A stretch of 20,486 bases of DNA from an uncultured archaeon (lineage in GTDB: Archaea; Asgardarchaeota; Jordiarchaeia; Jordiarchaeales; Jordiarchaeaceae): NCBI GenBank assembly GCA_964510585.1, contig CAZECW010000168.1, positions 1 to 20,486 of the forward strand. Direction: 5' to 3'. Position 1 is the first letter of the stretch. Each line of letters begins with the position of its first letter. The notes under the pieces were generated by a model. It was not told where the DNA came from. It saw only the letters and a list, made by a program, of their open reading frames with translations, and ran no database searches. Shown piece after piece: positions 11,008 through 19,498 of this stretch. The position numbers were made by a program, and so were the translations under genes.

Positions 11008-13674
11008 CTAAACCCACATGTCTAACCTAGTGACCCCAATGATTTTTTGGAAATCTACACCTATCGCATCCAGAACCTGCTCAAAAGTAGATTTAAGATA
11101 CTCTTGATACTTTTCAGTATCAATCTCCTCTTTACTGGCAAGTTCCACCGGCCGCACACCATCTCTACCCCTGACCTTCACAAAAGAGATTATATCCCCT
11201 GGTTTAAGCTCCTTCCCATTCTTGGTGAGCTGCCTCGCCGCCTTCACATGCTGCGGGGTGGTCTTAACATAGCTGTTAAGGGGCTTATTTATTTGTATGT
11301 GAAATGCAAACTCTTCCAAGCTGAATTCTTTGTTTCTTATTTTGTTATAGCAAGTTCTCGCGATTTCTTGAATCTCTTTTTTGGCTTTGTCAAAGTCCTC
11401 CTGGGATTGGACCCGGCTTAAAGTTTCCACCATTTTGAGAAAGGATTCCTGAGCAAATTGAGGGGTGTTCCTCTTTTTTCCAGTGAGACCCTTTATATCC
11501 ACGGAACCATCCTTGAAAACTCCAAGATAGTTCTTCTTACGATCTGACAACGCTACGTAGCGATATTCCTTATCCAATTCTAGGTCTATTTGGAGTTCCT
11601 TTTTGCTCCAGTTTCTGAGTTCTTCTATGGATTTTGGTGAGGGGTTTTTTATGAAGACGCTGTCGGTGTCGCCGTAGATTATTTTCATTCCTAGGGATTT
11701 GGCTTTGTCTATGGCTCTTTGGATGGCGTATCTTCCTATGGCTGCAGTGCTTTCGGCTACTGGTAAGCAGTAGAAGGGGAAGTGTTCGGCGCCGAAAACT
11801 CCGTAGCTGGCGTTTAGGTATACTTTTAGTGCTCTTTCGACTATGGAGTTCCATGTTCGTTCTTCTTCTTTTAGTGTGCGGTCTTTGGATTTTGGTTTGA
11901 ACCACTTTACGCGTATGTCTCTTAGGAAGCCTATTATTATGGAGGTTATTCCGTTGCGTTTTGTGCATACCCAGTGGTTTGTTTCTGGGACAATGTTTTT
12001 TCTGCATTCGGGGTGTGGGCATCTTACGGTTTCGTAGCTTAGGTTGTATTCTTTTATGATGCTGGGGTAAAGGGAGGCGAAGTCGAGTACTGCTACGTTG
12101 AAGTGTACTCCTGCTTCTGGTTCAACTACTATTGCTCCTCTGAATTTTTTGTCTTTGATGATTGCTTTGGTTTCGCCGATTCCTTTTATGCGGTTTATGT
12201 CTTCTGGGAGGGGTATGAGGTAGTTTCTTATGCGGTGTTCGTAGTAGAACAGGTTTTTTATCCAGGAGGATACTCCTTGTCTTGTTAGGTCTTCTGCGGA
12301 TAGTCGGGAGATGCGCATTAGTAGGATGATTAGTTTCATGACTAGGTTGTCGTCGAATTGTGTTAGTTTGAGGGTGACTTGGGAGTCCCACCAGCAGTAG
12401 TATGCGAGGTCTAGGAGGGATAATTCGTGGATTGATTTGTCGAGGGTGAGTTTTCCGACGTTTAGGAGGGCTTTTGATATGGCGTCTAGTGTTTCTTCTT
12501 TGTAGCGGTCTGAAAATGCGTAGACTTGGATGGATCTGTTGTGGAAGAATCGGTATAGGTCGATGTGGATGCTTGTGGTCATGTAGGCGAATTCGTTTGT
12601 TAGGATTATGGGTATTTCTTCTTTTTTGATGCCTAGTTTGAGGGCTCTATTGTATAGGTATCTTAGGTCGAAATTGTCGCCGTTGAAGGTGACGATTATG
12701 GGGTATTCGCTCATGGCTTCGAAGGCTCTTTTTAACATTTGGGGTTCGCTGTTGAAGTATTCTATTTTGACGTCTGGGGGTAGGCCTTTGGGCCATTCTC
12801 CGGCTTCGACGTCTTCTCTCTTTAGGAGCAAAATTGTGTTCTTGTTTTCGCTGGAAACTAGGGATACGCATATTACTTGGTTTTCTGCGGTTGATGAGTC
12901 GGGTATTCTGTCTCGGATGGGAGAGTAAACTTCTATGTCTATGGCGGCTCTTTTTATGTCTGGTACTGGTGTTAGGAATAGGGGTAAGAACTCGTCAAGT
13001 ACGTCTTTGAATTTGGTTGTTTCTCCCAGGGCGGTTTCCATTTCTTTTTTTATATGGGCAGGGATTTCGGTGGGGGTTTTGATTATATTTCCTTTTTCTA
13101 TTCGGTAGAAGAGACCAGGTATTATGTTTCTGTCGAAGATAAAGTTGTCGTGGTATCTGATTTTGGCCTCCCAGGCTTTTGGCAGAATTTCTCTTATGGA
13201 GTTGCTTTTGCCTCCTATGGCTAGGGGATCCTTCGCCACAATTTTTGTCATTTTTACGGTTTTGTCGGAGAGCAAATCATATTTTTCGACTTCTTCAAAG
13301 TTTAGTAAACCTTCGTGGCTCATCAGTTTTTTATTCTGTCTTAATTTTTCGCAGTCAAGGTCTGAGTAGCAGTAAGGGTGGTGGTTGGTGTTATCATACC
13401 AGCAAAAGAGCTTTTTGGTTTTGGGGTCGTATAAACGTGTGAATGCTAGATTGTTTTTTCCGTCATACTCCACCGATAGAACTAAACCCGGACCGTAATT
13501 TTCTGGGCAAAAATAGGGCAGTCCCTCGAACTTTACCTCCACCTCTTCCTCCTCGTCGCCACTCACCTCCTCGTCAACTTCGGTTTCGACTTCCTCTATT
13601 TTTTCTTGAGGAGGTTCCTTTTTGGGCGTAGGTTCTTTTTGCATGTATTTAAGAAGACCCGCCTTTTCACTCAT
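11008..13674 (-). CDS. polB1: Family B DNA polymerase, PolB1 (Sulfolobus Dpo1-like) clade
   Basis: VEYDGK and YDNTNHHPY (PolB1 N-terminal pattern). Exo motifs AIDIEVY, TFNGDNFDL and YCWWD. Pol motifs LDFASLYPSII, KVYLNASYG, IYGDTDS, KKNY.G and KKRNTP. TPQHVKAA. Confidence 0.95.
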   Translation of the reverse strand: MSEKAGLLKYMQKEPTPKKEPPQEKIEEVETEVDEEVSGDEEEEVEVKFEGLPYFCPENYGPGLVLSVEYDGKNNLAFTRLYDPKTKKLFCWYDNTNHHPYCYSDLDCEKLRQNKKLMSHEGLLNFEEVEKYDLLSDKTVKMTKIVAKDPLAIGGKSNSIREILPKAWEAKIRYHDNFIFDRNIIPGLFYRIEKGNIIKTPTEIPAHIKKEMETALGETTKFKDVLDEFLPLFLTPVPDIKRAAIDIEVYSPIRDRIPDSSTAENQVICVSLVSSENKNTILLLKREDVEAGEWPKGLPPDVKIEYFNSEPQMLKRAFEAMSEYPIIVTFNGDNFDLRYLYNRALKLGIKKEEIPIILTNEFAYMTTSIHIDLYRFFHNRSIQVYAFSDRYKEETLDAISKALLNVGKLTLDKSIHELSLLDLAYYCWWDSQVTLKLTQFDDNLVMKLIILLMRISRLSAEDLTRQGVSSWIKNLFYYEHRIRNYLIPLPEDINRIKGIGETKAIIKDKKFRGAIVVEPEAGVHFNVAVLDFASLYPSIIKEYNLSYETVRCPHPECRKNIVPETNHWVCTKRNGITSIIIGFLRDIRVKWFKPKSKDRTLKEEERTWNSIVERALKVYLNASYGVFGAEHFPFYCLPVAESTAAIGRYAIQRAIDKAKSLGMKIIYGDTDSVFIKNPSPKSIEELRNWSKKELQIDLELDKEYRYVALSDRKKNYLGVFKDGSVDIKGLTGKKRNTPQFAQESFLKMVETLSRVQSQEDFDKAKKEIQEIARTCYNKIRNKEFSLEEFAFHIQINKPLNSYVKTTPQHVKAARQLTKNGKELKPGDIISFVKVRGRDGVRPVELASKEEIDTEKYQEYLKSTFEQVLDAIGVDFQKIIGVTRLDMWV

Positions 13675-13734: not shown

Positions 13735-13889
13735 GTTGGTAGATTTGAGGATAGAATCAAGACTATATTATTGAAGTGTGAGAAACATAAATAAGTCTAA
13801 CCTAAGGTTAAAAAAATTATCCATCTAAGAAAACGGTGAACGTCAAAAATTGGAATTTTGTCCTCCACGATTTTATAGGGGTGAAGAAA

Positions 13890-14312
13890 TTGAAGTCAAT
13901 AGAGTCGAACTCTAAAAGGATTATTGTTGCAAAACTGGAAAAAGGAGAGGATCTATTAGAGGCATTAGCGGAATTAGCTAAAAAACATGAATTAGTTTCC
14001 GGCTTTTTTAGCGCCATTGGAGCTTTATCAAAGGCCAATATTGGTTTCTTTGAAGAGGGTGAATATAAATCCGTAAAGTTGGAATCAGATTTAGAATTGT
14101 TATCATGCATTGGAAATGTTTCCTACAGGGAAGGGGAAGTGATGGTTCACGCCCATGCTGTGGTAGGTGACCGGGAAGGAAAAGCTTTTGGCGGACATGT
14201 ACTTAAGGGATGCGTTGTTTCAGTCACTTGTGAAATATTTTTAGTAGAAATAGACAAAAAGGTAATACGGACTAAAGATAACGCTACGGGACTCTATCTC
14301 CTAGATTTTTAA
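13890..14312 (+). CDS. PPC-domain (DUF296) putative DNA-binding/zinc protein
   Basis: RIIVAKLEKGEDLL, AIGALS, LELLSCIGNVS, HAHAVVGDREGKAFGGHV and VSVTCEIFL. Start moved from 13836 to the TTG at 13890, which follows GGGGTG (GTG at 13881 also possible). Confidence 0.85.
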   Translation: MKSIESNSKRIIVAKLEKGEDLLEALAELAKKHELVSGFFSAIGALSKANIGFFEEGEYKSVKLESDLELLSCIGNVSYREGEVMVHAHAVVGDREGKAFGGHVLKGCVVSVTCEIFLVEIDKKVIRTKDNATGLYLLDF

Positions 14313-14463: not shown

Positions 14464-14499
14464 ACAGATTACATCACCATATTAATAGGAGGCTCACTG

Positions 14500-15741
14500 T
14501 TGGCTGAAATTAAGTGGCGAGTTCTATTTGATGAAACACAGAAAGAACGGGGACGTATTACAACAAGTTACGCTGCACTCAAAGGAGTTCTGGAAACTGA
14601 GGGCATTCAAAGTATAAGATTTGTTGATTTTCCAATAACATTGGATAAATTGAAGGACTTTGACGCTGTGGTATTCCCTTGTCCAGACCAGTCTAAACTG
14701 CAGCCTGGTGAAATTCGAGCGGTTTTGGATTACGTTTCCAGAGGTGGTGGAGTAGTTTTATTAAGCCATGCTGGCGGTGACAGGGGACTGAGAACCAATC
14801 TTAATGAGCTGGCTGAAAATTTTGGAATATCTTTTCAGAATAACCAAGTAACAGATGAGAGACAAAACTTGGGTTTGGAGAATCTACCAAAAATCACCAA
14901 GTTTAAGGATCACCCTGTTACCGAGGGAATAACAGAATTATGCTATTCTGCAGGTTGCAGCATAAAAATCGTTGGGGAAGCAGAAGCCTTAGCAATTACA
15001 AGCAGAACCGCTGAACCTCCAGATGCCATTATTCTAGCAGTTGCTAATTATGGAAATGGTAAGGTTGCCGCCCTAGGTTCATACGAAATTTTTAGAGATA
15101 GAATAATGGGTGGACTCAATACCTCGCAAAATATGGTTTTAGCAAAAAACATCTTTAAATGGATACTTACACCTTCAAAGCCTAAAGAAGCTCCTGCTAT
15201 ACCGGCTAAGGAGAAGATTAGTGAGGCAGTAGTGGAACCTAGTGTATCCCCGGAGGTTACACTAGGCGAAGAGAGAGTTAAACCCGTATTGACAGCGAGG
15301 CCTATGGAGGATGTTTCAAAAGCTCCGCAGCCTATAGCCGCTGCGTACACCCCTCAAATTGACAAGTTAATGACTGAGGTTACAACTTTAAGAAGGAGAT
15401 TCGATGCATTCATAGATGAGTTTAGAGAGTTTGCTGCACGAGTGCTGAGTCAAGGTATTACGCCTTCTGAAACTATTCGGACGGTTACACGTTCAGTACC
15501 TGTATCCTCGTCTCTAATAACTGATGTCGCTAAACGTGAAGAACTAGAAAGCTTAGAGTCAAGAATGCGCTCGCTCCAGAACCAGTTGGACTACATTACT
15601 AAGAGGTACCAGTCTGGAGCATTACAAAAAGCAGAGTACGCCGCACAAAGAGCAAAAATTCGGGGAGAAATGAGAACTATACAACAACAGATAAATGCAA
15701 TAACAGGAAAGACTGAGGAGCTACTGCCCACTGAGGATTAA
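14500..15741 (+). CDS. Cytoplasmic GIFT-domain (GldG/IFT52/DUF4350-like) protein with Pro-rich linker, coiled coil and C-terminal helical hairpin
   Basis: aa 1-224 align by eye to the IFT52 N-domain (VLFDETQKE, ITLDKL, EIRAVLDYVSRGGGV, GGD...TNLNEL..NFGI, GKVAALGS..IF.D, NIFKWI). No signal peptide or TM segment. Confidence 0.75.
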   Translation: MAEIKWRVLFDETQKERGRITTSYAALKGVLETEGIQSIRFVDFPITLDKLKDFDAVVFPCPDQSKLQPGEIRAVLDYVSRGGGVVLLSHAGGDRGLRTNLNELAENFGISFQNNQVTDERQNLGLENLPKITKFKDHPVTEGITELCYSAGCSIKIVGEAEALAITSRTAEPPDAIILAVANYGNGKVAALGSYEIFRDRIMGGLNTSQNMVLAKNIFKWILTPSKPKEAPAIPAKEKISEAVVEPSVSPEVTLGEERVKPVLTARPMEDVSKAPQPIAAAYTPQIDKLMTEVTTLRRRFDAFIDEFREFAARVLSQGITPSETIRTVTRSVPVSSSLITDVAKREELESLESRMRSLQNQLDYITKRYQSGALQKAEYAAQRAKIRGEMRTIQQQINAITGKTEELLPTED

Positions 15742-15871: not shown

Positions 15872-16438
15872 CTATTCTTTCATTTTTTTAAGGGTTTCGT
15901 CTCTTTCAAAGGCTTTTACTTTGTTTCTTATCCAAGTGTTTATCACCGCCTTAGCTTCTGGCATCAGTGTTTTCACCTTATCGAACAGTCCTAGTATGAA
16001 GACTATAATCTCGTCTTTTCTCCAACGGTCTTCCTGTTTAAAGAAGAATGTTATGTCGTAACCTTCTTCAGGGTTCATAACGTTAAGTTTCTCCCGAACC
16101 AGTTCCCGAACCAGTTTACTAATCAGGTATTCTTCGAAGGCGTCTCTCTTTTCAAAGTTGAGAGATAGTAGGGAGCTGTTAACTGTTTTTTGACCTTTTC
16201 CACGCATAACTTTTACTTCTTTGCACTGTCCGACATCGCATTTATTTTCGCAGAGTATACAGGGGTAGTCGCTGCCTCTGATTACGCAGACATGTGGCTG
16301 CAGGTCTAAAAGGAACTCTAAGGCGTCAGCTAATTCTTCAAGTTCAATTATTGTAACTTCTTCAACCTTGTCAAACCTTTCATCCAAAGACAGAGTGTCT
16401 AATGGCTCATTCGGTGGTTTGCCATATTTTTCTCCCAA
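15872..16438 (-). CDS. ARP2/3 complex subunit 4 (ARPC4)-like protein with Cys-rich insertion
   Basis: [20 protein letters not shown]...[26 protein letters not shown] and the C-terminal helix mirror ARPC4 [18 protein letters not shown]...[26 protein letters not shown] (recalled human sequence). Confidence 0.7.
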   Translation of the reverse strand: [188 protein letters not shown]

Positions 16439-16879
16439 GGTAGTTTCACCACGAGAAAATATCAGAACTCGTATAGAATATTTAACCTGAAGCTATTTAT
16501 TTCTTCCCAGCAACTTTTGAGGAACAATACAGCTTCGTTTGATTTATCCCCCCGAATAAGCTTTTTTATGGAGACTTATTTTTCCACTATGAACCCCATA
16601 AATGAGGAAATGAATTTGAAAAATTCAGGCCACAAACCCAAATTTGAAGACTCCAAACTTTTCTTATGCAAACTATGAAAATTTTCTTGTCGAAAACTCA
16701 GATAAGAAAATAATTGGTATACTATGTACCTTTTAGGTAACCAAAACCTAGAAATACAGCCAATTCTCTTATCATAATTAATGACAAACTTCAATCATTG
16801 TTTTTAAGCACTCAAAAAGTCATGCGAACAAGCCTAACTTTTGATGATATTACCGAGTATGGAAATTGGTGATTTGGAT

Positions 16880-17569
16880 ATGCCGGTATTAAAGTACTTT
16901 GGCCACGCGGCATTCAAATTCTACTCGCCTAAGGTCAGCGTAATTTTCGATCCGGGCATAGTGAGTAATAAGGCGTTGGTGCCCGAGTCTGAAAAAACAA
17001 ATATCATCTGTGTATCACACGAGCATAGGGATCATTTGGGTAACGCTGCCCAACTTTCCGCAAAACAAAAGGCATTCCTACTGGGGAACGAGCAAACTAT
17101 AAAAGTAGCTCTAAAGGAAGGCGCGCCGGAATGGCTTGTAAGGAAAATACAAAGCGGAGAAACCTTTGAGAGACCCAACATAAAAGTAACAGCTCTGGAA
17201 CTTAGGCACGGCCCATCCACAGAGCCGATTAACACCCCCAATTTATGCTTCATAGTAGAAATTGACAAAGTGCGAGTAGCAAACCTCGGGGACGCCATGA
17301 CTAAGGGACTATTAGAACAGTATCCAATTGATGTTTTACTTATTGGAGTAGACGAAACAGAAGCCTTCAACAGTAACCAATCACTAAACGCCATCGCAGA
17401 CATTAAACCACAGCTAGCCATACCCATGCACATTAGAACCGAGCATGAAATAGACTACTTCTTTACCCATGCACAAACCGTAGCTCCCAAAACCAATTTC
17501 AGAAAAATGAAGCCGGGCGATGAAATAAGAGTTGAATGGCTAGCAGGAACAGAGTTTAGTATAAGTTAG
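16880..17569 (+). CDS. Metallo-beta-lactamase-fold hydrolase (UPF0173 / Lactamase_B_3-like)
   Basis: LKYFGHAAF, IFDP, VSHEHRDHLG (HxHxDH), HG, GDA and AIPMH. Start moved from 16841 to the ATG at 16880, which follows GGTGAT. Confidence 0.85.
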   Translation: MPVLKYFGHAAFKFYSPKVSVIFDPGIVSNKALVPESEKTNIICVSHEHRDHLGNAAQLSAKQKAFLLGNEQTIKVALKEGAPEWLVRKIQSGETFERPNIKVTALELRHGPSTEPINTPNLCFIVEIDKVRVANLGDAMTKGLLEQYPIDVLLIGVDETEAFNSNQSLNAIADIKPQLAIPMHIRTEHEIDYFFTHAQTVAPKTNFRKMKPGDEIRVEWLAGTEFSIS

Positions 17570-17716: not shown

Positions 17717-19498
17717 GTGAGCACAGAAGGAATAAAACTTAATGTGGATGTAACTGAGAACGTTGATTGCGTTATCACAGAGAAACATGAAATCAAAAGT
17801 CTAAATGTAAAAGGCGTCATTTCCGTCAACAACAATAGTTCTAAGAATAGGATATGGAATGCTGAGCTTCGATTAGGAGGCATCGAAACCACTTCCTTGA
17901 AGGAGAGTGTCATACCAGTTGGCGCGGTACAGGCAGGCAAAAAATGGACAATGGAGTATAGCGTACCCGTTGAGGAAACAGTACTCAAATTAAAGGAAGT
18001 AATAGACACCTGTTACGAAGATGATATAGTTAACTGGGCGCTGGTCTATCGTAGACCCATGCCCGTAAGCAGCACTATAACAGTTAGTAATCCTACAGAC
18101 GCCTACATAGACAGTGTAAAGGTTAGAAAGGTTATACCGAAAGGTTTTGGAGATCCAGAAATAGAACCGCCTAACACGGGAACCGCAGAATTTGAACCCG
18201 AAACAAGGGAAGTTGTATGGAAGAACTTCGAACTATCTCCGGGAAGTGAAGCATCACTAGTTGTTAAATTTAATATTACCGCAGAGTCCATAGACCCAAT
18301 TGCTGCGGGTAAAGTTATCGCAGAGTACCACATTAAGGATAGAACCAGATCGCTCCTCAACCCTGACATTATTTCTGTTTCTGACAGCAGATTTGCGCTG
18401 GAACCGGCAGAATCCCCCACCCAACCATCAACTTGGGATTGCACACTCGAATTTATGAACACCAGCGAATTTCTACAAAGGCTCCTCAAAGTGGAAGTCT
18501 TCCAAATAAAAGGAGAAAAGAAGGAGCCACTCCTCGCCCTGGAGCCCAACAAGGATATTCCGCCCAGACAATCTTGGGAATACAAATTTAGCATAAAAAG
18601 TCCTACAATCCCAGTTTTTGAAACAAACGTCGACTACAAAGTGGTTAAAGAGGTAACACGACACGTATATGCCAAGATTACAAAGGAGGACACCATACTA
18701 CCGGTAGAAAGAATTCTGGTTGAGAAGACATTTACCCCACCCCAAGTTGACGCCTACGACAAAACACCTATGACGGTAACGGTACAGGTGTCAAATGTTG
18801 GCAGCGCCCCGCTGGATCAGGTGACAATATACGACACTGTTCCAGAAGACTTCAAACCTCCAGCGCATGAACGCGTAAAGGTTTACGTAAATGAAAAGGA
18901 GTTATCTCAAGGCATAGAAATTATAACCAATCCCAACGACGATAATCCCGCCACAAGACACGGACTTACGGTTTTTGTCAGGAACCTGAAAAACTTTGTG
19001 GGTGGATTAAACCCTGGACAGTATGTAAAATTTGTTTACCCCATTATGGCTTGGGAGCCGAAGCCTGAGAAGAACTATACAACCCCACTAAGAGCAACGG
19101 CGAACACAACATCACCAGGACCCAATGTAGAATACTTGGAGCTGGAAACAAACCCCCCAAAAATTGGAATCAAATATACTCGACGCGCTGTAAGAATATA
19201 TAAAGAGGCTGTGTCTCCCGGCGCAAAAGCGGGACAACACATAATTCCACTGACAATATTGAATACTGGAGAAGTTTCCATCGCAAACGTCACAGTAAAG
19301 GACTTTGTAGCCCCAGGTTTCAGCTTGGTGGAGTGGAAACCGGAGGAAATACCCCCAAAAGTTACTGAAACCATCGATGGCTTAGTGCTTACATGGAAAT
19401 TTATGAGAATAGAGCCGGGACAGGAAATTTCACTATCCTACACTGTTGAAGGCGAAGGCAAATATACCAGGAAAGAACCCCAAATTTCAATCGAGTAA
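17717..19498 (+). CDS. Cytoplasmic all-beta protein: N-terminal adaptin mu-homology-domain-like region plus two DUF11-like Ig domains
   Basis: DVTENV...G.I...ELRLG, V....P....P....G.....PE..EVVW, and Y.I...T.S match mu1/mu2 MHD patterns. Later repeats V.K....../V.V.N.G......V.I.D.VP are DUF11-like. No signal peptide or TM segment. Confidence 0.65.
   Translation: MSTEGIKLNVDVTENVDCVITEKHEIKSLNVKGVISVNNNSSKNRIWNAELRLGGIETTSLKESVIPVGAVQAGKKWTMEYSVPVEETVLKLKEVIDTCYEDDIVNWALVYRRPMPVSSTITVSNPTDAYIDSVKVRKVIPKGFGDPEIEPPNTGTAEFEPETREVVWKNFELSPGSEASLVVKFNITAESIDPIAAGKVIAEYHIKDRTRSLLNPDIISVSDSRFALEPAESPTQPSTWDCTLEFMNTSEFLQRLLKVEVFQIKGEKKEPLLALEPNKDIPPRQSWEYKFSIKSPTIPVFETNVDYKVVKEVTRHVYAKITKEDTILPVERILVEKTFTPPQVDAYDKTPMTVTVQVSNVGSAPLDQVTIYDTVPEDFKPPAHERVKVYVNEKELSQGIEIITNPNDDNPATRHGLTVFVRNLKNFVGGLNPGQYVKFVYPIMAWEPKPEKNYTTPLRATANTTSPGPNVEYLELETNPPKIGIKYTRRAVRIYKEAVSPGAKAGQHIIPLTILNTGEVSIANVTVKDFVAPGFSLVEWKPEEIPPKVTETIDGLVLTWKFMRIEPGQEISLSYTVEGEGKYTRKEPQISIE

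Follow-up and report, generated by a model that had tools for sequence, protein, structure and literature searches.

Does an archaeal genome encode a relative of a core subunit of the ciliary transport machinery? The question is raised by a gene, here called P0001, on contig CAZECW010000168.1 of assembly GCA_964510585.1, a 20,486-nucleotide stretch of DNA (the window) from a hot-spring Asgard archaeon (Jordarchaeia/Freyarchaeia). A preliminary description of this DNA had drawn attention to positions 14500-15174, whose translation resembles the N-terminal GIFT domain of IFT52, the core scaffold of the intraflagellar-transport complex IFT-B1; that span encodes the N-terminal 225 amino acids (aa) of a 413-aa protein. 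We conclude that the gene belongs to a real, conserved and undescribed Asgard family with a genuine IFT52-type head, that this head is part of the known GIFT domain superfamily, and that the gene is not an IFT52 orthologue. The gene and its parts are laid out as follows.

14487..14492, + strand: Shine-Dalgarno-like AGGAGG box, read from the sequence, 7 nt 5' of the TTG start
14500..15741, + strand: whole GIFT-head gene P0001, a single 413-aa open reading frame (ORF) with a TTG start
14500..15177, + strand: GIFT domain (aa 1-226), a class I glutamine-amidotransferase-like alpha/beta fold homologous to the IFT52 N-domain
15178..15333, + strand: disordered linker rich in Pro, Ala, Glu and Val (aa 227-278), with a predicted local distance difference test (pLDDT) score <50 over residues 230-277
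15334..15450, + strand: long helix (aa 279-317), probable coiled coil, from the AlphaFold2 secondary structure
15505..15720, + strand: conserved C-terminal module (aa 336-407), in which a helix-turn-helix hairpin comes after a first helix, from an iterated hidden Markov model (HMM)

The homology of the head to the IFT52 N-domain (IFT52N) is secure by four methods, and the relationship is distant. In Pfam, PF23355 (IFT52_GIFT) is the top family (E 9e-14, 51.6 bits, cut-off 27.2) and the sole one to exceed its own cut-off; ABC_transp_aux (PF09822, 29.0 vs 34.7 bits), DUF4350 (PF14258, 25.3 vs 30.4), ThuA (25.8 vs 33.4 bits) and DUF7408 all score below theirs. A phmmer search of the PDB sequences returns the mouse, Chlamydomonas and train-embedded IFT52 proteins as its top three, and the HMMER alignment to mouse IFT52 covers residues 3-117 and 147-224. 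The blocks aligned there (ILFNAYKKE, EITSEKL, GG..GEGGE..TNINFLLEEYGI, GKLAVLGS.HMFSD and VFQWL) are the same ones that the preliminary description had listed for IFT52.

A profile built from 19 Asgard GIFT domains (A2) finds IFT52 in the PDB with an E value of 9e-21 over the whole domain; the next entry has E 0.002, and no OST48 or S1P match to this profile exists among the PDB sequences. Structural comparison by Foldseek likewise places the IFT52 N-domain first, with E 2e-15, a template-modelling (TM) score of 0.80-0.88, 22-23% identity and a root-mean-square deviation (rmsd) of 2.4-2.7 Å for the mouse chains. The top five entries are all IFT52N (rmsd 2.4-4.6 Å over ~225 residues), and further down come STM3548 (TM score 0.65), OST48/Wbp1 (0.42-0.44), ThuA-like structures, GH42 B domains, GATase1-like structures and S1P. 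When A2 was compared by hhalign with an alignment of 19 diverse eukaryotic IFT52 GIFT domains (A3), columns 4-224 matched columns 4-254 with 99.8% probability (E 1e-29, 213 columns, 26% identity). Thus, the alignment of the N-terminal ~225 aa with IFT52, proposed by eye in the preliminary description, holds in Pfam, in profile and profile-profile searches and in structure, and the structural ranking suggested there puts IFT52 ahead of OST48, S1P, ThuA-like and GATase1-like structures.

The eukaryotic references behind A3 were obtained by scanning metagenome contigs with a degenerate 35-nt DNA pattern for T-N-x-N-x-[LF]-L-E-x-[FY]-G-[IM]. This yielded 120 loci (L020-L139), of which ~45 hold ORFs of 380-510 aa on short cDNA-like contigs. 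All ten ORFs that were tested carry IFT52_GIFT (280-427 bits), IFT52_central and Itf52_C, and because all three Pfam domains are present we regard them as authentic IFT52. Owing to this motif fishing, the sample is biased to sequences with the TNxN..LE..G motif; pairwise identity among the domains kept reaches down to 34% (median 44%). With one short motif, full-length eukaryotic IFT52 transcripts can thus be drawn by the dozen from environmental metatranscriptomes, which offers a route to protist IFT52 diversity. Prokaryotic genomes scanned in turn for the IFT52 motif pattern gave 55 pattern matches and no relatives.

Within the source genome, the GIFT gene is the only match to A3 (E 2.5e-13). 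The family orthologue is also the best A3 match in Jord- and Heimdall-type genomes and in several other families, and in Loki-type genomes a ~320-aa paralogue slightly outscores it.

The full protein consists of a GIFT head, a flexible Pro/Ala/Glu linker, a coiled coil and a helical-hairpin tail, as seen in the AlphaFold2 model and in an alignment of 19 homologues. The head (residues 1-226) is modelled confidently, with pLDDT mostly >85. Beyond it, residues 230-277 are modelled as a disordered linker and residues 319-340 as another stretch of disorder, and helices span 279-317, 341-371 and 377-402; the long helix 279-317 has only weak coiled-coil matches in Pfam and NCBIfam. Among the homologues the linker varies in length and sequence and the tail is conserved. 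The GIFT domain begins at residue 3, and neither the protein nor 18 relatives contain a signal-like or transmembrane-like stretch by Kyte-Doolittle analysis (19-residue mean); the maximum over these 19 proteins is <=1.67 and lies in core beta strands. These data agree with the lack of a signal or membrane segment noted in the preliminary description, and we predict that the protein is cytosolic and soluble.

A 97% identical 413-aa protein is recorded in a Candidatus Freyarchaeota metagenome-assembled genome (MAG), and contigs from a 90-95% identical relative also cover the gene. Because the differences in the latter sit almost solely at third codon positions, the frame is a real gene under purifying selection. 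Members of the family occur in Freya/Jord-, Heimdall-, Loki-, Hel-, Thor-, Njord- and Sif-archaeal MAGs, and some homologues are also listed under PF27016. One homologue (P0023) bears the name 'Bathyarchaeota', which is probably wrong, as a matching gene sits in a genome assigned to the Asgard phylum. Matches to the head profile at E<=1e-5 are found in 388 of 400 genomes of the phylum and in all 90 of the high-quality ones, and orthologue-level matches (E<=1e-50, by our own table count) in ~290 of the 400 genomes and 19 of 33 families. Several families, including one with 22 large genomes (f11), have only weak matches. Many Loki-type genomes hold four to seven matches, which represent paralogues, and an Asgard genome may carry as many as 7-8 GIFT matches. 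A predicted cytosolic location is the norm for Asgard GIFT proteins.

Although the head is of the IFT52 type, the remainder of the protein is not. In IFT52, the central domain binds IFT88/IFT70 and the C-terminal domain binds IFT46. The archaeal protein gives no match to IFT52_central (PF23352) or Itf52_C (PF21178) at E<=10. These two families and IFT46_B_C (PF12317) are each found in 0 of 101 high-quality Asgard genomes, a result to be read knowing that prokaryotic controls cannot register such eukaryotic families and that the same PF23352 and PF21178 models did detect real IFT52. The preliminary description had likened the Pro-rich linker and helical C-terminus to those of IFT52; the likeness stands as architecture only, and homology to the IFT52 central and C-terminal domains does not.

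The interaction surface of the IFT52 head is also different. A surface patch of IFT52 formed by K130 and R204 mediates binding to IFT-B2 (PMC4818760). The archaeal column aligned with K130 is variable (K in P0001; V, I, E or L in relatives), and the one aligned with R204 is Ala/Ser-like. Moreover, IFT52 carries an insertion of ~30 residues after Asgard position 127 that holds an invariant YKY.HPKE block with K130, and the archaeal family is without this insertion.

In summary, the protein and IFT52 (OSM-6/BLD1; PDB 5FMS, 5FMR and 8BD7 chain B) share the same fold and domain boundaries at 22-26% identity, as well as GG[DE]-x4-TNxN..[FY]G[IM] and G..xVLGS..[ML]F blocks. Both are cytosolic, on the archaeal side by prediction, and in both the domain sits at the extreme N-terminus and is followed by a non-globular region. 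However, the archaeal protein lacks IFT52_central and Itf52_C, no IFT46 is present in the genomes searched, the PF23355 score is 52 bits here compared to 280-427 for real IFT52, and the archaeal family has invariant Cys, Asp and Gln residues of its own.

The PF23355 label must also be read against the breadth of the superfamily. Searched against 1.84 billion representatives, the Asgard profile has 5448 protein matches at E<=1e-3, of which more than 150 outscore the 77 bits that IFT52 obtains with it. Single domains of multi-GIFT secreted proteins from bacteria and TACK archaea reach 45-100 bits, which is the range of IFT52. With PF23355 itself, the core family scores 41-88 bits (always as the top family), cytosolic Asgard paralogues 30-73 and some secreted domains up to 80, and an Atlas fold search shows that the family also labels DUF4350 clusters of Thermoplasmatota and Actinomycetota. 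Such a label on archaeal or bacterial proteins is therefore a superfamily match and no evidence of an IFT52 orthologue. The preliminary description had presented the combination of an IFT52-like head with a cytosolic location as distinctive; the cytosolic prediction survives, and the specificity does not, given the high PF23355 scores of paralogues and some secreted proteins.

The prokaryotic GIFT, DUF4350 and GldG-type (ABC_transp_aux) proteins belong to the same superfamily as the Asgard head, but most of them begin with a signal-like N-terminus and carry GIFT domains in tandem, they group in a clade of their own (97 Shimodaira-Hasegawa (SH)-like support) and nearly all lack GG[DE]-x4-TNxN; P0001 in turn falls under the PF09822 and PF14258 cut-offs. 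The N-domain of OST48/Wbp1 and the GATase-like domain of site-1 protease (S1P) have a related fold (Foldseek E 5e-9 for OST48 and 3.5e-6 for S1P), but the match is much weaker (TM score by target 0.42-0.44), and these proteins are lumenal or membrane-anchored.

Where, then, does the IFT52 head come from? We built a FastTree phylogeny of 141 prokaryotic GIFT domains, to which 19 IFT52 domains were then added, and an IQ-TREE phylogeny under LG+C20+F+G4 with posterior mean site frequencies (PMSF; 123 rows, 225 columns). The prokaryotic rows are the best matches of the Asgard profile, and because they were picked in this way, GIFT groups nearer to IFT52 may be unsampled; the sample leaves out the DUF4350 proteins of Thermoplasmatota, Actinomycetota and Methanobacteriota that also match PF23355. 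FastTree separates a cytosolic clade, made up of the core family (79 rows, support 99) and paralogues, from a mostly signal-bearing multi-domain clade with 97 SH-like support. Branching with bacterial or euryarchaeal DUF4350 proteins, which the preliminary description had named as the outcome that would speak against it, is not seen in the sampled tree, where the cytosolic clade is Asgard-specific.

In both trees IFT52 is monophyletic on a long stem (1.3-1.6 changes per site) and nests in the core family, where six divergent Njordarchaeia-type rows form its sister group (ultrafast bootstrap 97, SH-like approximate likelihood ratio test 84). This placement is insecure. A constrained tree that holds all cytosolic Asgard rows together with IFT52 outside has a log-likelihood 5.3 above that of the free-search tree (approximately unbiased (AU) test, p 0.58), and in it IFT52 pairs, at the base of the cytosolic clade, with a long-branched singleton from Helarchaeota. 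A second constraint, which unites IFT52 with the distal secreted clade, is 3.8 log-likelihood units above the free-search tree (AU p 0.57). Without the six divergent rows and the singleton, IFT52 shifts to two other long branches near the group containing Sifarchaeum. The signature GG[DE]-x4-TNxN is present in 17 of 19 IFT52 domains (a set fished with part of the same motif, which the PDB IFT52 chains carry as well), 30 of 73 core rows, 6 of 16 cytosolic paralogues, 0 of the 6 divergent rows and 1 of 46 members of the secreted clade. The nested placement is thus undermined by both AU tests, by the removal of long branches and by sister rows that lack the motif.

We do not accept the pairing of IFT52 with the six Njord-type rows as evidence, given that none of them has the signature and that the placement is lost on removal. 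In the near-optimal placements, the nameable immediate neighbors of IFT52 are all Asgard proteins. From the motif census, we read the IFT52 head as probably related to the cytosolic GIFT proteins of Asgard archaea in general, more closely than to the secreted multi-GIFT ones. Since the trees do not fix the exact position of IFT52, we make no claim of ancestor and descendant. It is possible, and we suggest it only tentatively, that the IFT52 head descends from the cytosolic GIFT radiation of Asgard archaea, to which this conserved gene belongs. The idea in the preliminary description of a prokaryotic relative of a ciliary subunit is accordingly upheld for the homology of the head and not for a special sister relation to IFT52, which the AU tests and the moves among long branches do not establish.

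What might the archaeal protein do? Across the 19 homologues, 21 head columns are invariant, including F10, G18, E71, an A-G-G-D elbow at 91-94, N100, Q116, D119, N123, C153 and Y195; Cys61 and Asp63 are invariant too. The invariant polar residues all follow directly after the central strands, at what is the usual ligand edge of this fold, and fall into the motifs CPD.SK, AGGD....N, Q..D...N, GCS and GSY..F at the C-terminal edge of the central beta sheet. From this arrangement of conserved polar residues at strand C-termini, we infer a binding crevice. The archaeal head has no Cys-His-Glu triad: the elbow after strand 84-88 reads Ser-His-Ala-Gly-Gly-Asp, without a nucleophile Cys, and its His is replaced in Heimdall-type members.

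The tail ends in a 70-residue module that an iterated HMM finds in 58 family members (L..[YF]I..[KR][YF]..G.[IL]....Y..Q). Its best PDB match, a weak one, is to residues 94-156 of 8WHN (E 0.0025), the ribosome-binding cytoplasmic domain of Prometheoarchaeum OST1/ribophorin I (PMC11417166). This match suggests that the hairpin module may recur in unrelated Asgard proteins. The tail profile also meets the Vps28 N-terminal hairpin below significance (E 0.055-0.15, four entries), and SHOCT matches 7 of 34 tails (best E 4.4e-5; E 0.2 for P0001). A helix-G.[IL]....[YF]-helix pattern is common to the archaeal tail, SHOCT, the steadiness-box hairpins of ESCRT-I (endosomal sorting complex required for transport I) and 8WHN, but the similarity is sub-significant (E 0.0025 to 0.15), and the weak matches sit among generic coiled-coil ones such as haemagglutinin, flagellin and prefoldin. 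The tail has no Vps23_core or Mod_r match in Pfam, a look-up by features in the protein atlas returned no usable match, and a complex prediction with two tail copies (residues 275-413) scored 0.02, which is no evidence either way.

The surroundings of the gene differ among lineages. An A/T-rich TATA-like element, TTTATAAT, lies ~40 nt upstream of the GIFT gene and, on its sequence, is a putative promoter. The neighboring genes in the window are given below.

11008-13674, - strand: family B DNA polymerase (PolB), upstream of and divergent from the GIFT gene
13836-14312, + strand: PCC/DUF296 protein, a neighbor of the GIFT gene
15872-16438, - strand: ARPC4-like protein of 188 aa, just downstream of and convergent with the GIFT gene
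16841-17569, + strand: metallo-beta-lactamase-fold protein, a neighbor of the GIFT gene

All four Jordarchaeales loci have PolB divergent upstream and the ARPC4-like gene convergent downstream (the latter at L002:7390-7965, L003:9626-10216 and L004:7272-8042 in the other three). The 188-aa product matches the ARP2/3 subunit ARPC4 above the Pfam cut-off (E 4e-7; sister family 4e-8). Farther along the window, a 593-aa DUF11/DUF7507 repeat protein (17717-19498, + strand) has a sub-threshold match (E 4.8e-6, 26.6 bits, cut-off 31.6) to Adap_comp_sub, the adaptor-complex medium-subunit family. In both Heimdall-type loci, the next gene downstream, on the same strand, encodes an ATP-dependent DNA ligase (L006:9347-11131 + and L007:9552-11348 +). 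Two different replication enzymes thus adjoin the family gene in two classes.

Of the 19 loci, 10 (from Loki-type and related families) have a same-strand upstream gene for a sugar nucleotidyltransferase with an LbH domain, which in 6 of them directly adjoins the GIFT gene. In the five loci of one Loki-type family (f20; L012-L015 and L019), a GPN-loop GTPase gene precedes the nucleotidyltransferase gene, and the ~4 kb upstream of the GIFT gene hold a conserved same-strand string: an unknown gene of 127-133 aa, an unknown gene of ~320 aa (not in L012), the GPN-loop GTPase (ATP_bind_1) and the nucleotidyltransferase, whose LbH domain is eIF2B-epsilon-like. In one complete f19 genome, a Gtr1/RagA-like GTPase gene (L017:6989-8143, +) stands immediately upstream on the same strand.

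We lean toward the view that the protein is a soluble, non-enzymatic adaptor or scaffold, with a binding head on a flexible tether from an oligomerizing or docking tail. Its anatomy of GIFT head, linker, coiled coil and hairpin tail is established by the model and the alignment, and beyond that anatomy we infer the rest. The polar crevice along the C-terminal edge of the central beta sheet would be where the head binds its partner, whether a protein or some other ligand, and the tail would oligomerize the protein or dock it onto another assembly, so that heads would be displayed on flexible tethers. IFT52N is itself reported to have no catalytic residues, to bind no sugar and to act as a protein-binding surface (PMC4818760). 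Three points weigh against this assignment. Polar residues as strongly conserved as those of the crevice are just as compatible with the binding of a small molecule or with some form of catalysis; no neighboring gene is conserved across Asgard classes in the 19 loci compared; and the only contigs that cover the gene, in three runs labeled metatranscriptomic, belong to the 90-95% identical relative and may derive from DNA, which is probable for two of the runs.

The first of these points leads to a different proposal, that the head is a domain that binds or converts a small molecule (e.g., a sugar or sugar-nucleotide) in glycan or nucleotide-sugar metabolism. The fold is shared with class I amidotransferase-like and ThuA-like enzymes and with the GH42 B domain, the invariant polar residues occupy its ligand site, and the nucleotidyltransferase-LbH gene recurs upstream at the frequency given above. 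Other GIFT proteins point the same way, as OST48 and GldG reportedly act in glycosylation and polysaccharide-linked gliding (Beatson and Ponting, 2004). Nevertheless, we consider this proposal unlikely: the catalytic triad is absent, ThuA, DUF4350 and ABC_transp_aux all remain under their Pfam cut-offs, the nucleotidyltransferase is missing from Jord-, Heimdall-type and Hel-type loci, and the related IFT52 head does not bind sugars (PMC4818760). Less likely again is that the protein is an archaeal orthologue or direct progenitor of IFT52 at the core of a proto-IFT-like cytoplasmic trafficking complex. IFT52 is the top match by every method, the maximum-likelihood trees nest it inside the family with nameable neighbors that are Asgard, and the GG[DE]-x4-TNxN signature is held in common. 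However, none of the 101 high-quality Asgard genomes has IFT52_central, Itf52_C or IFT46_B_C, equivalents of the K130/R204 patch for IFT-B2 are not conserved, and PF23355 gives 41-88 bits in the family versus 280-427 in real IFT52. The trees themselves argue against it, in that the sister group is without the shared motif (0/6), its removal sends IFT52 to other long branches, and the AU test accepts, at slightly better likelihood, trees that keep IFT52 out of the cytosolic clade (p 0.58) or join it to the secreted one (p 0.57).

The tail invites a further explanation to which we give little credence, namely an accessory subunit, ESCRT-I-like or otherwise hairpin-docked, whose tail of Pro linker, stalk helix and steadiness-box-like hairpin would plug into a headpiece of similar hairpins or into another complex that uses this module. 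The conserved order of head, Pro linker, coiled coil and hairpin, with a module of 70 aa in 58 members, speaks for it, as do the weak matches to the Vps28 N-terminal hairpin and 8WHN and the SHOCT match in 7 of 34 tails. Yet these matches are all below significance amid generic coiled-coil ones, Pfam finds no Vps23_core or Mod_r, and there is no ESCRT gene within the window. The least probable of the explanations considered is a link to DNA replication or repair, as the PolB gene in 4/4 Jordarchaeales loci and the DNA ligase gene in 2/2 Heimdall-type loci would suggest. Each association is restricted to one lineage and may be plain synteny, the neighbors in other classes are unrelated, and no DNA-binding or PIP-box-type feature turned up, although none was searched for. 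We therefore keep the soluble adaptor or scaffold as our working assignment.

Our literature search found no paper that treats IFT52 together with Asgard archaea; work on the GIFT domain and archaea does not treat the family, and searches for IFT52 with archaea, or intraflagellar transport with Asgard, gave nothing relevant by title or abstract. The only public trace of the family that we found is an automatic PF23355 label on database entries. An origin has been proposed for the coatomer-like components of intraflagellar transport. Apart from the general GIFT link made in 2004, the IFT-B1 core (IFT52, IFT46) is not known to have prokaryotic relatives.

Given its presence in most Asgard lineages and the signature it shares with IFT52, the soluble GIFT-head family is a concrete candidate source of the IFT52 head. 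Caution matters equally, as the IFT52_GIFT label must not be taken as orthology. The family also provides a tractable protein for pull-downs, structure determination and localization in cultured Asgard archaea. If the IFT52 head did descend from the Asgard cytosolic radiation, part of the ciliary transport core would be of Asgard origin, rather than bacterial or de novo, and the Asgard GIFT-head family would be the nearest living stand-in for its pre-ciliary form.

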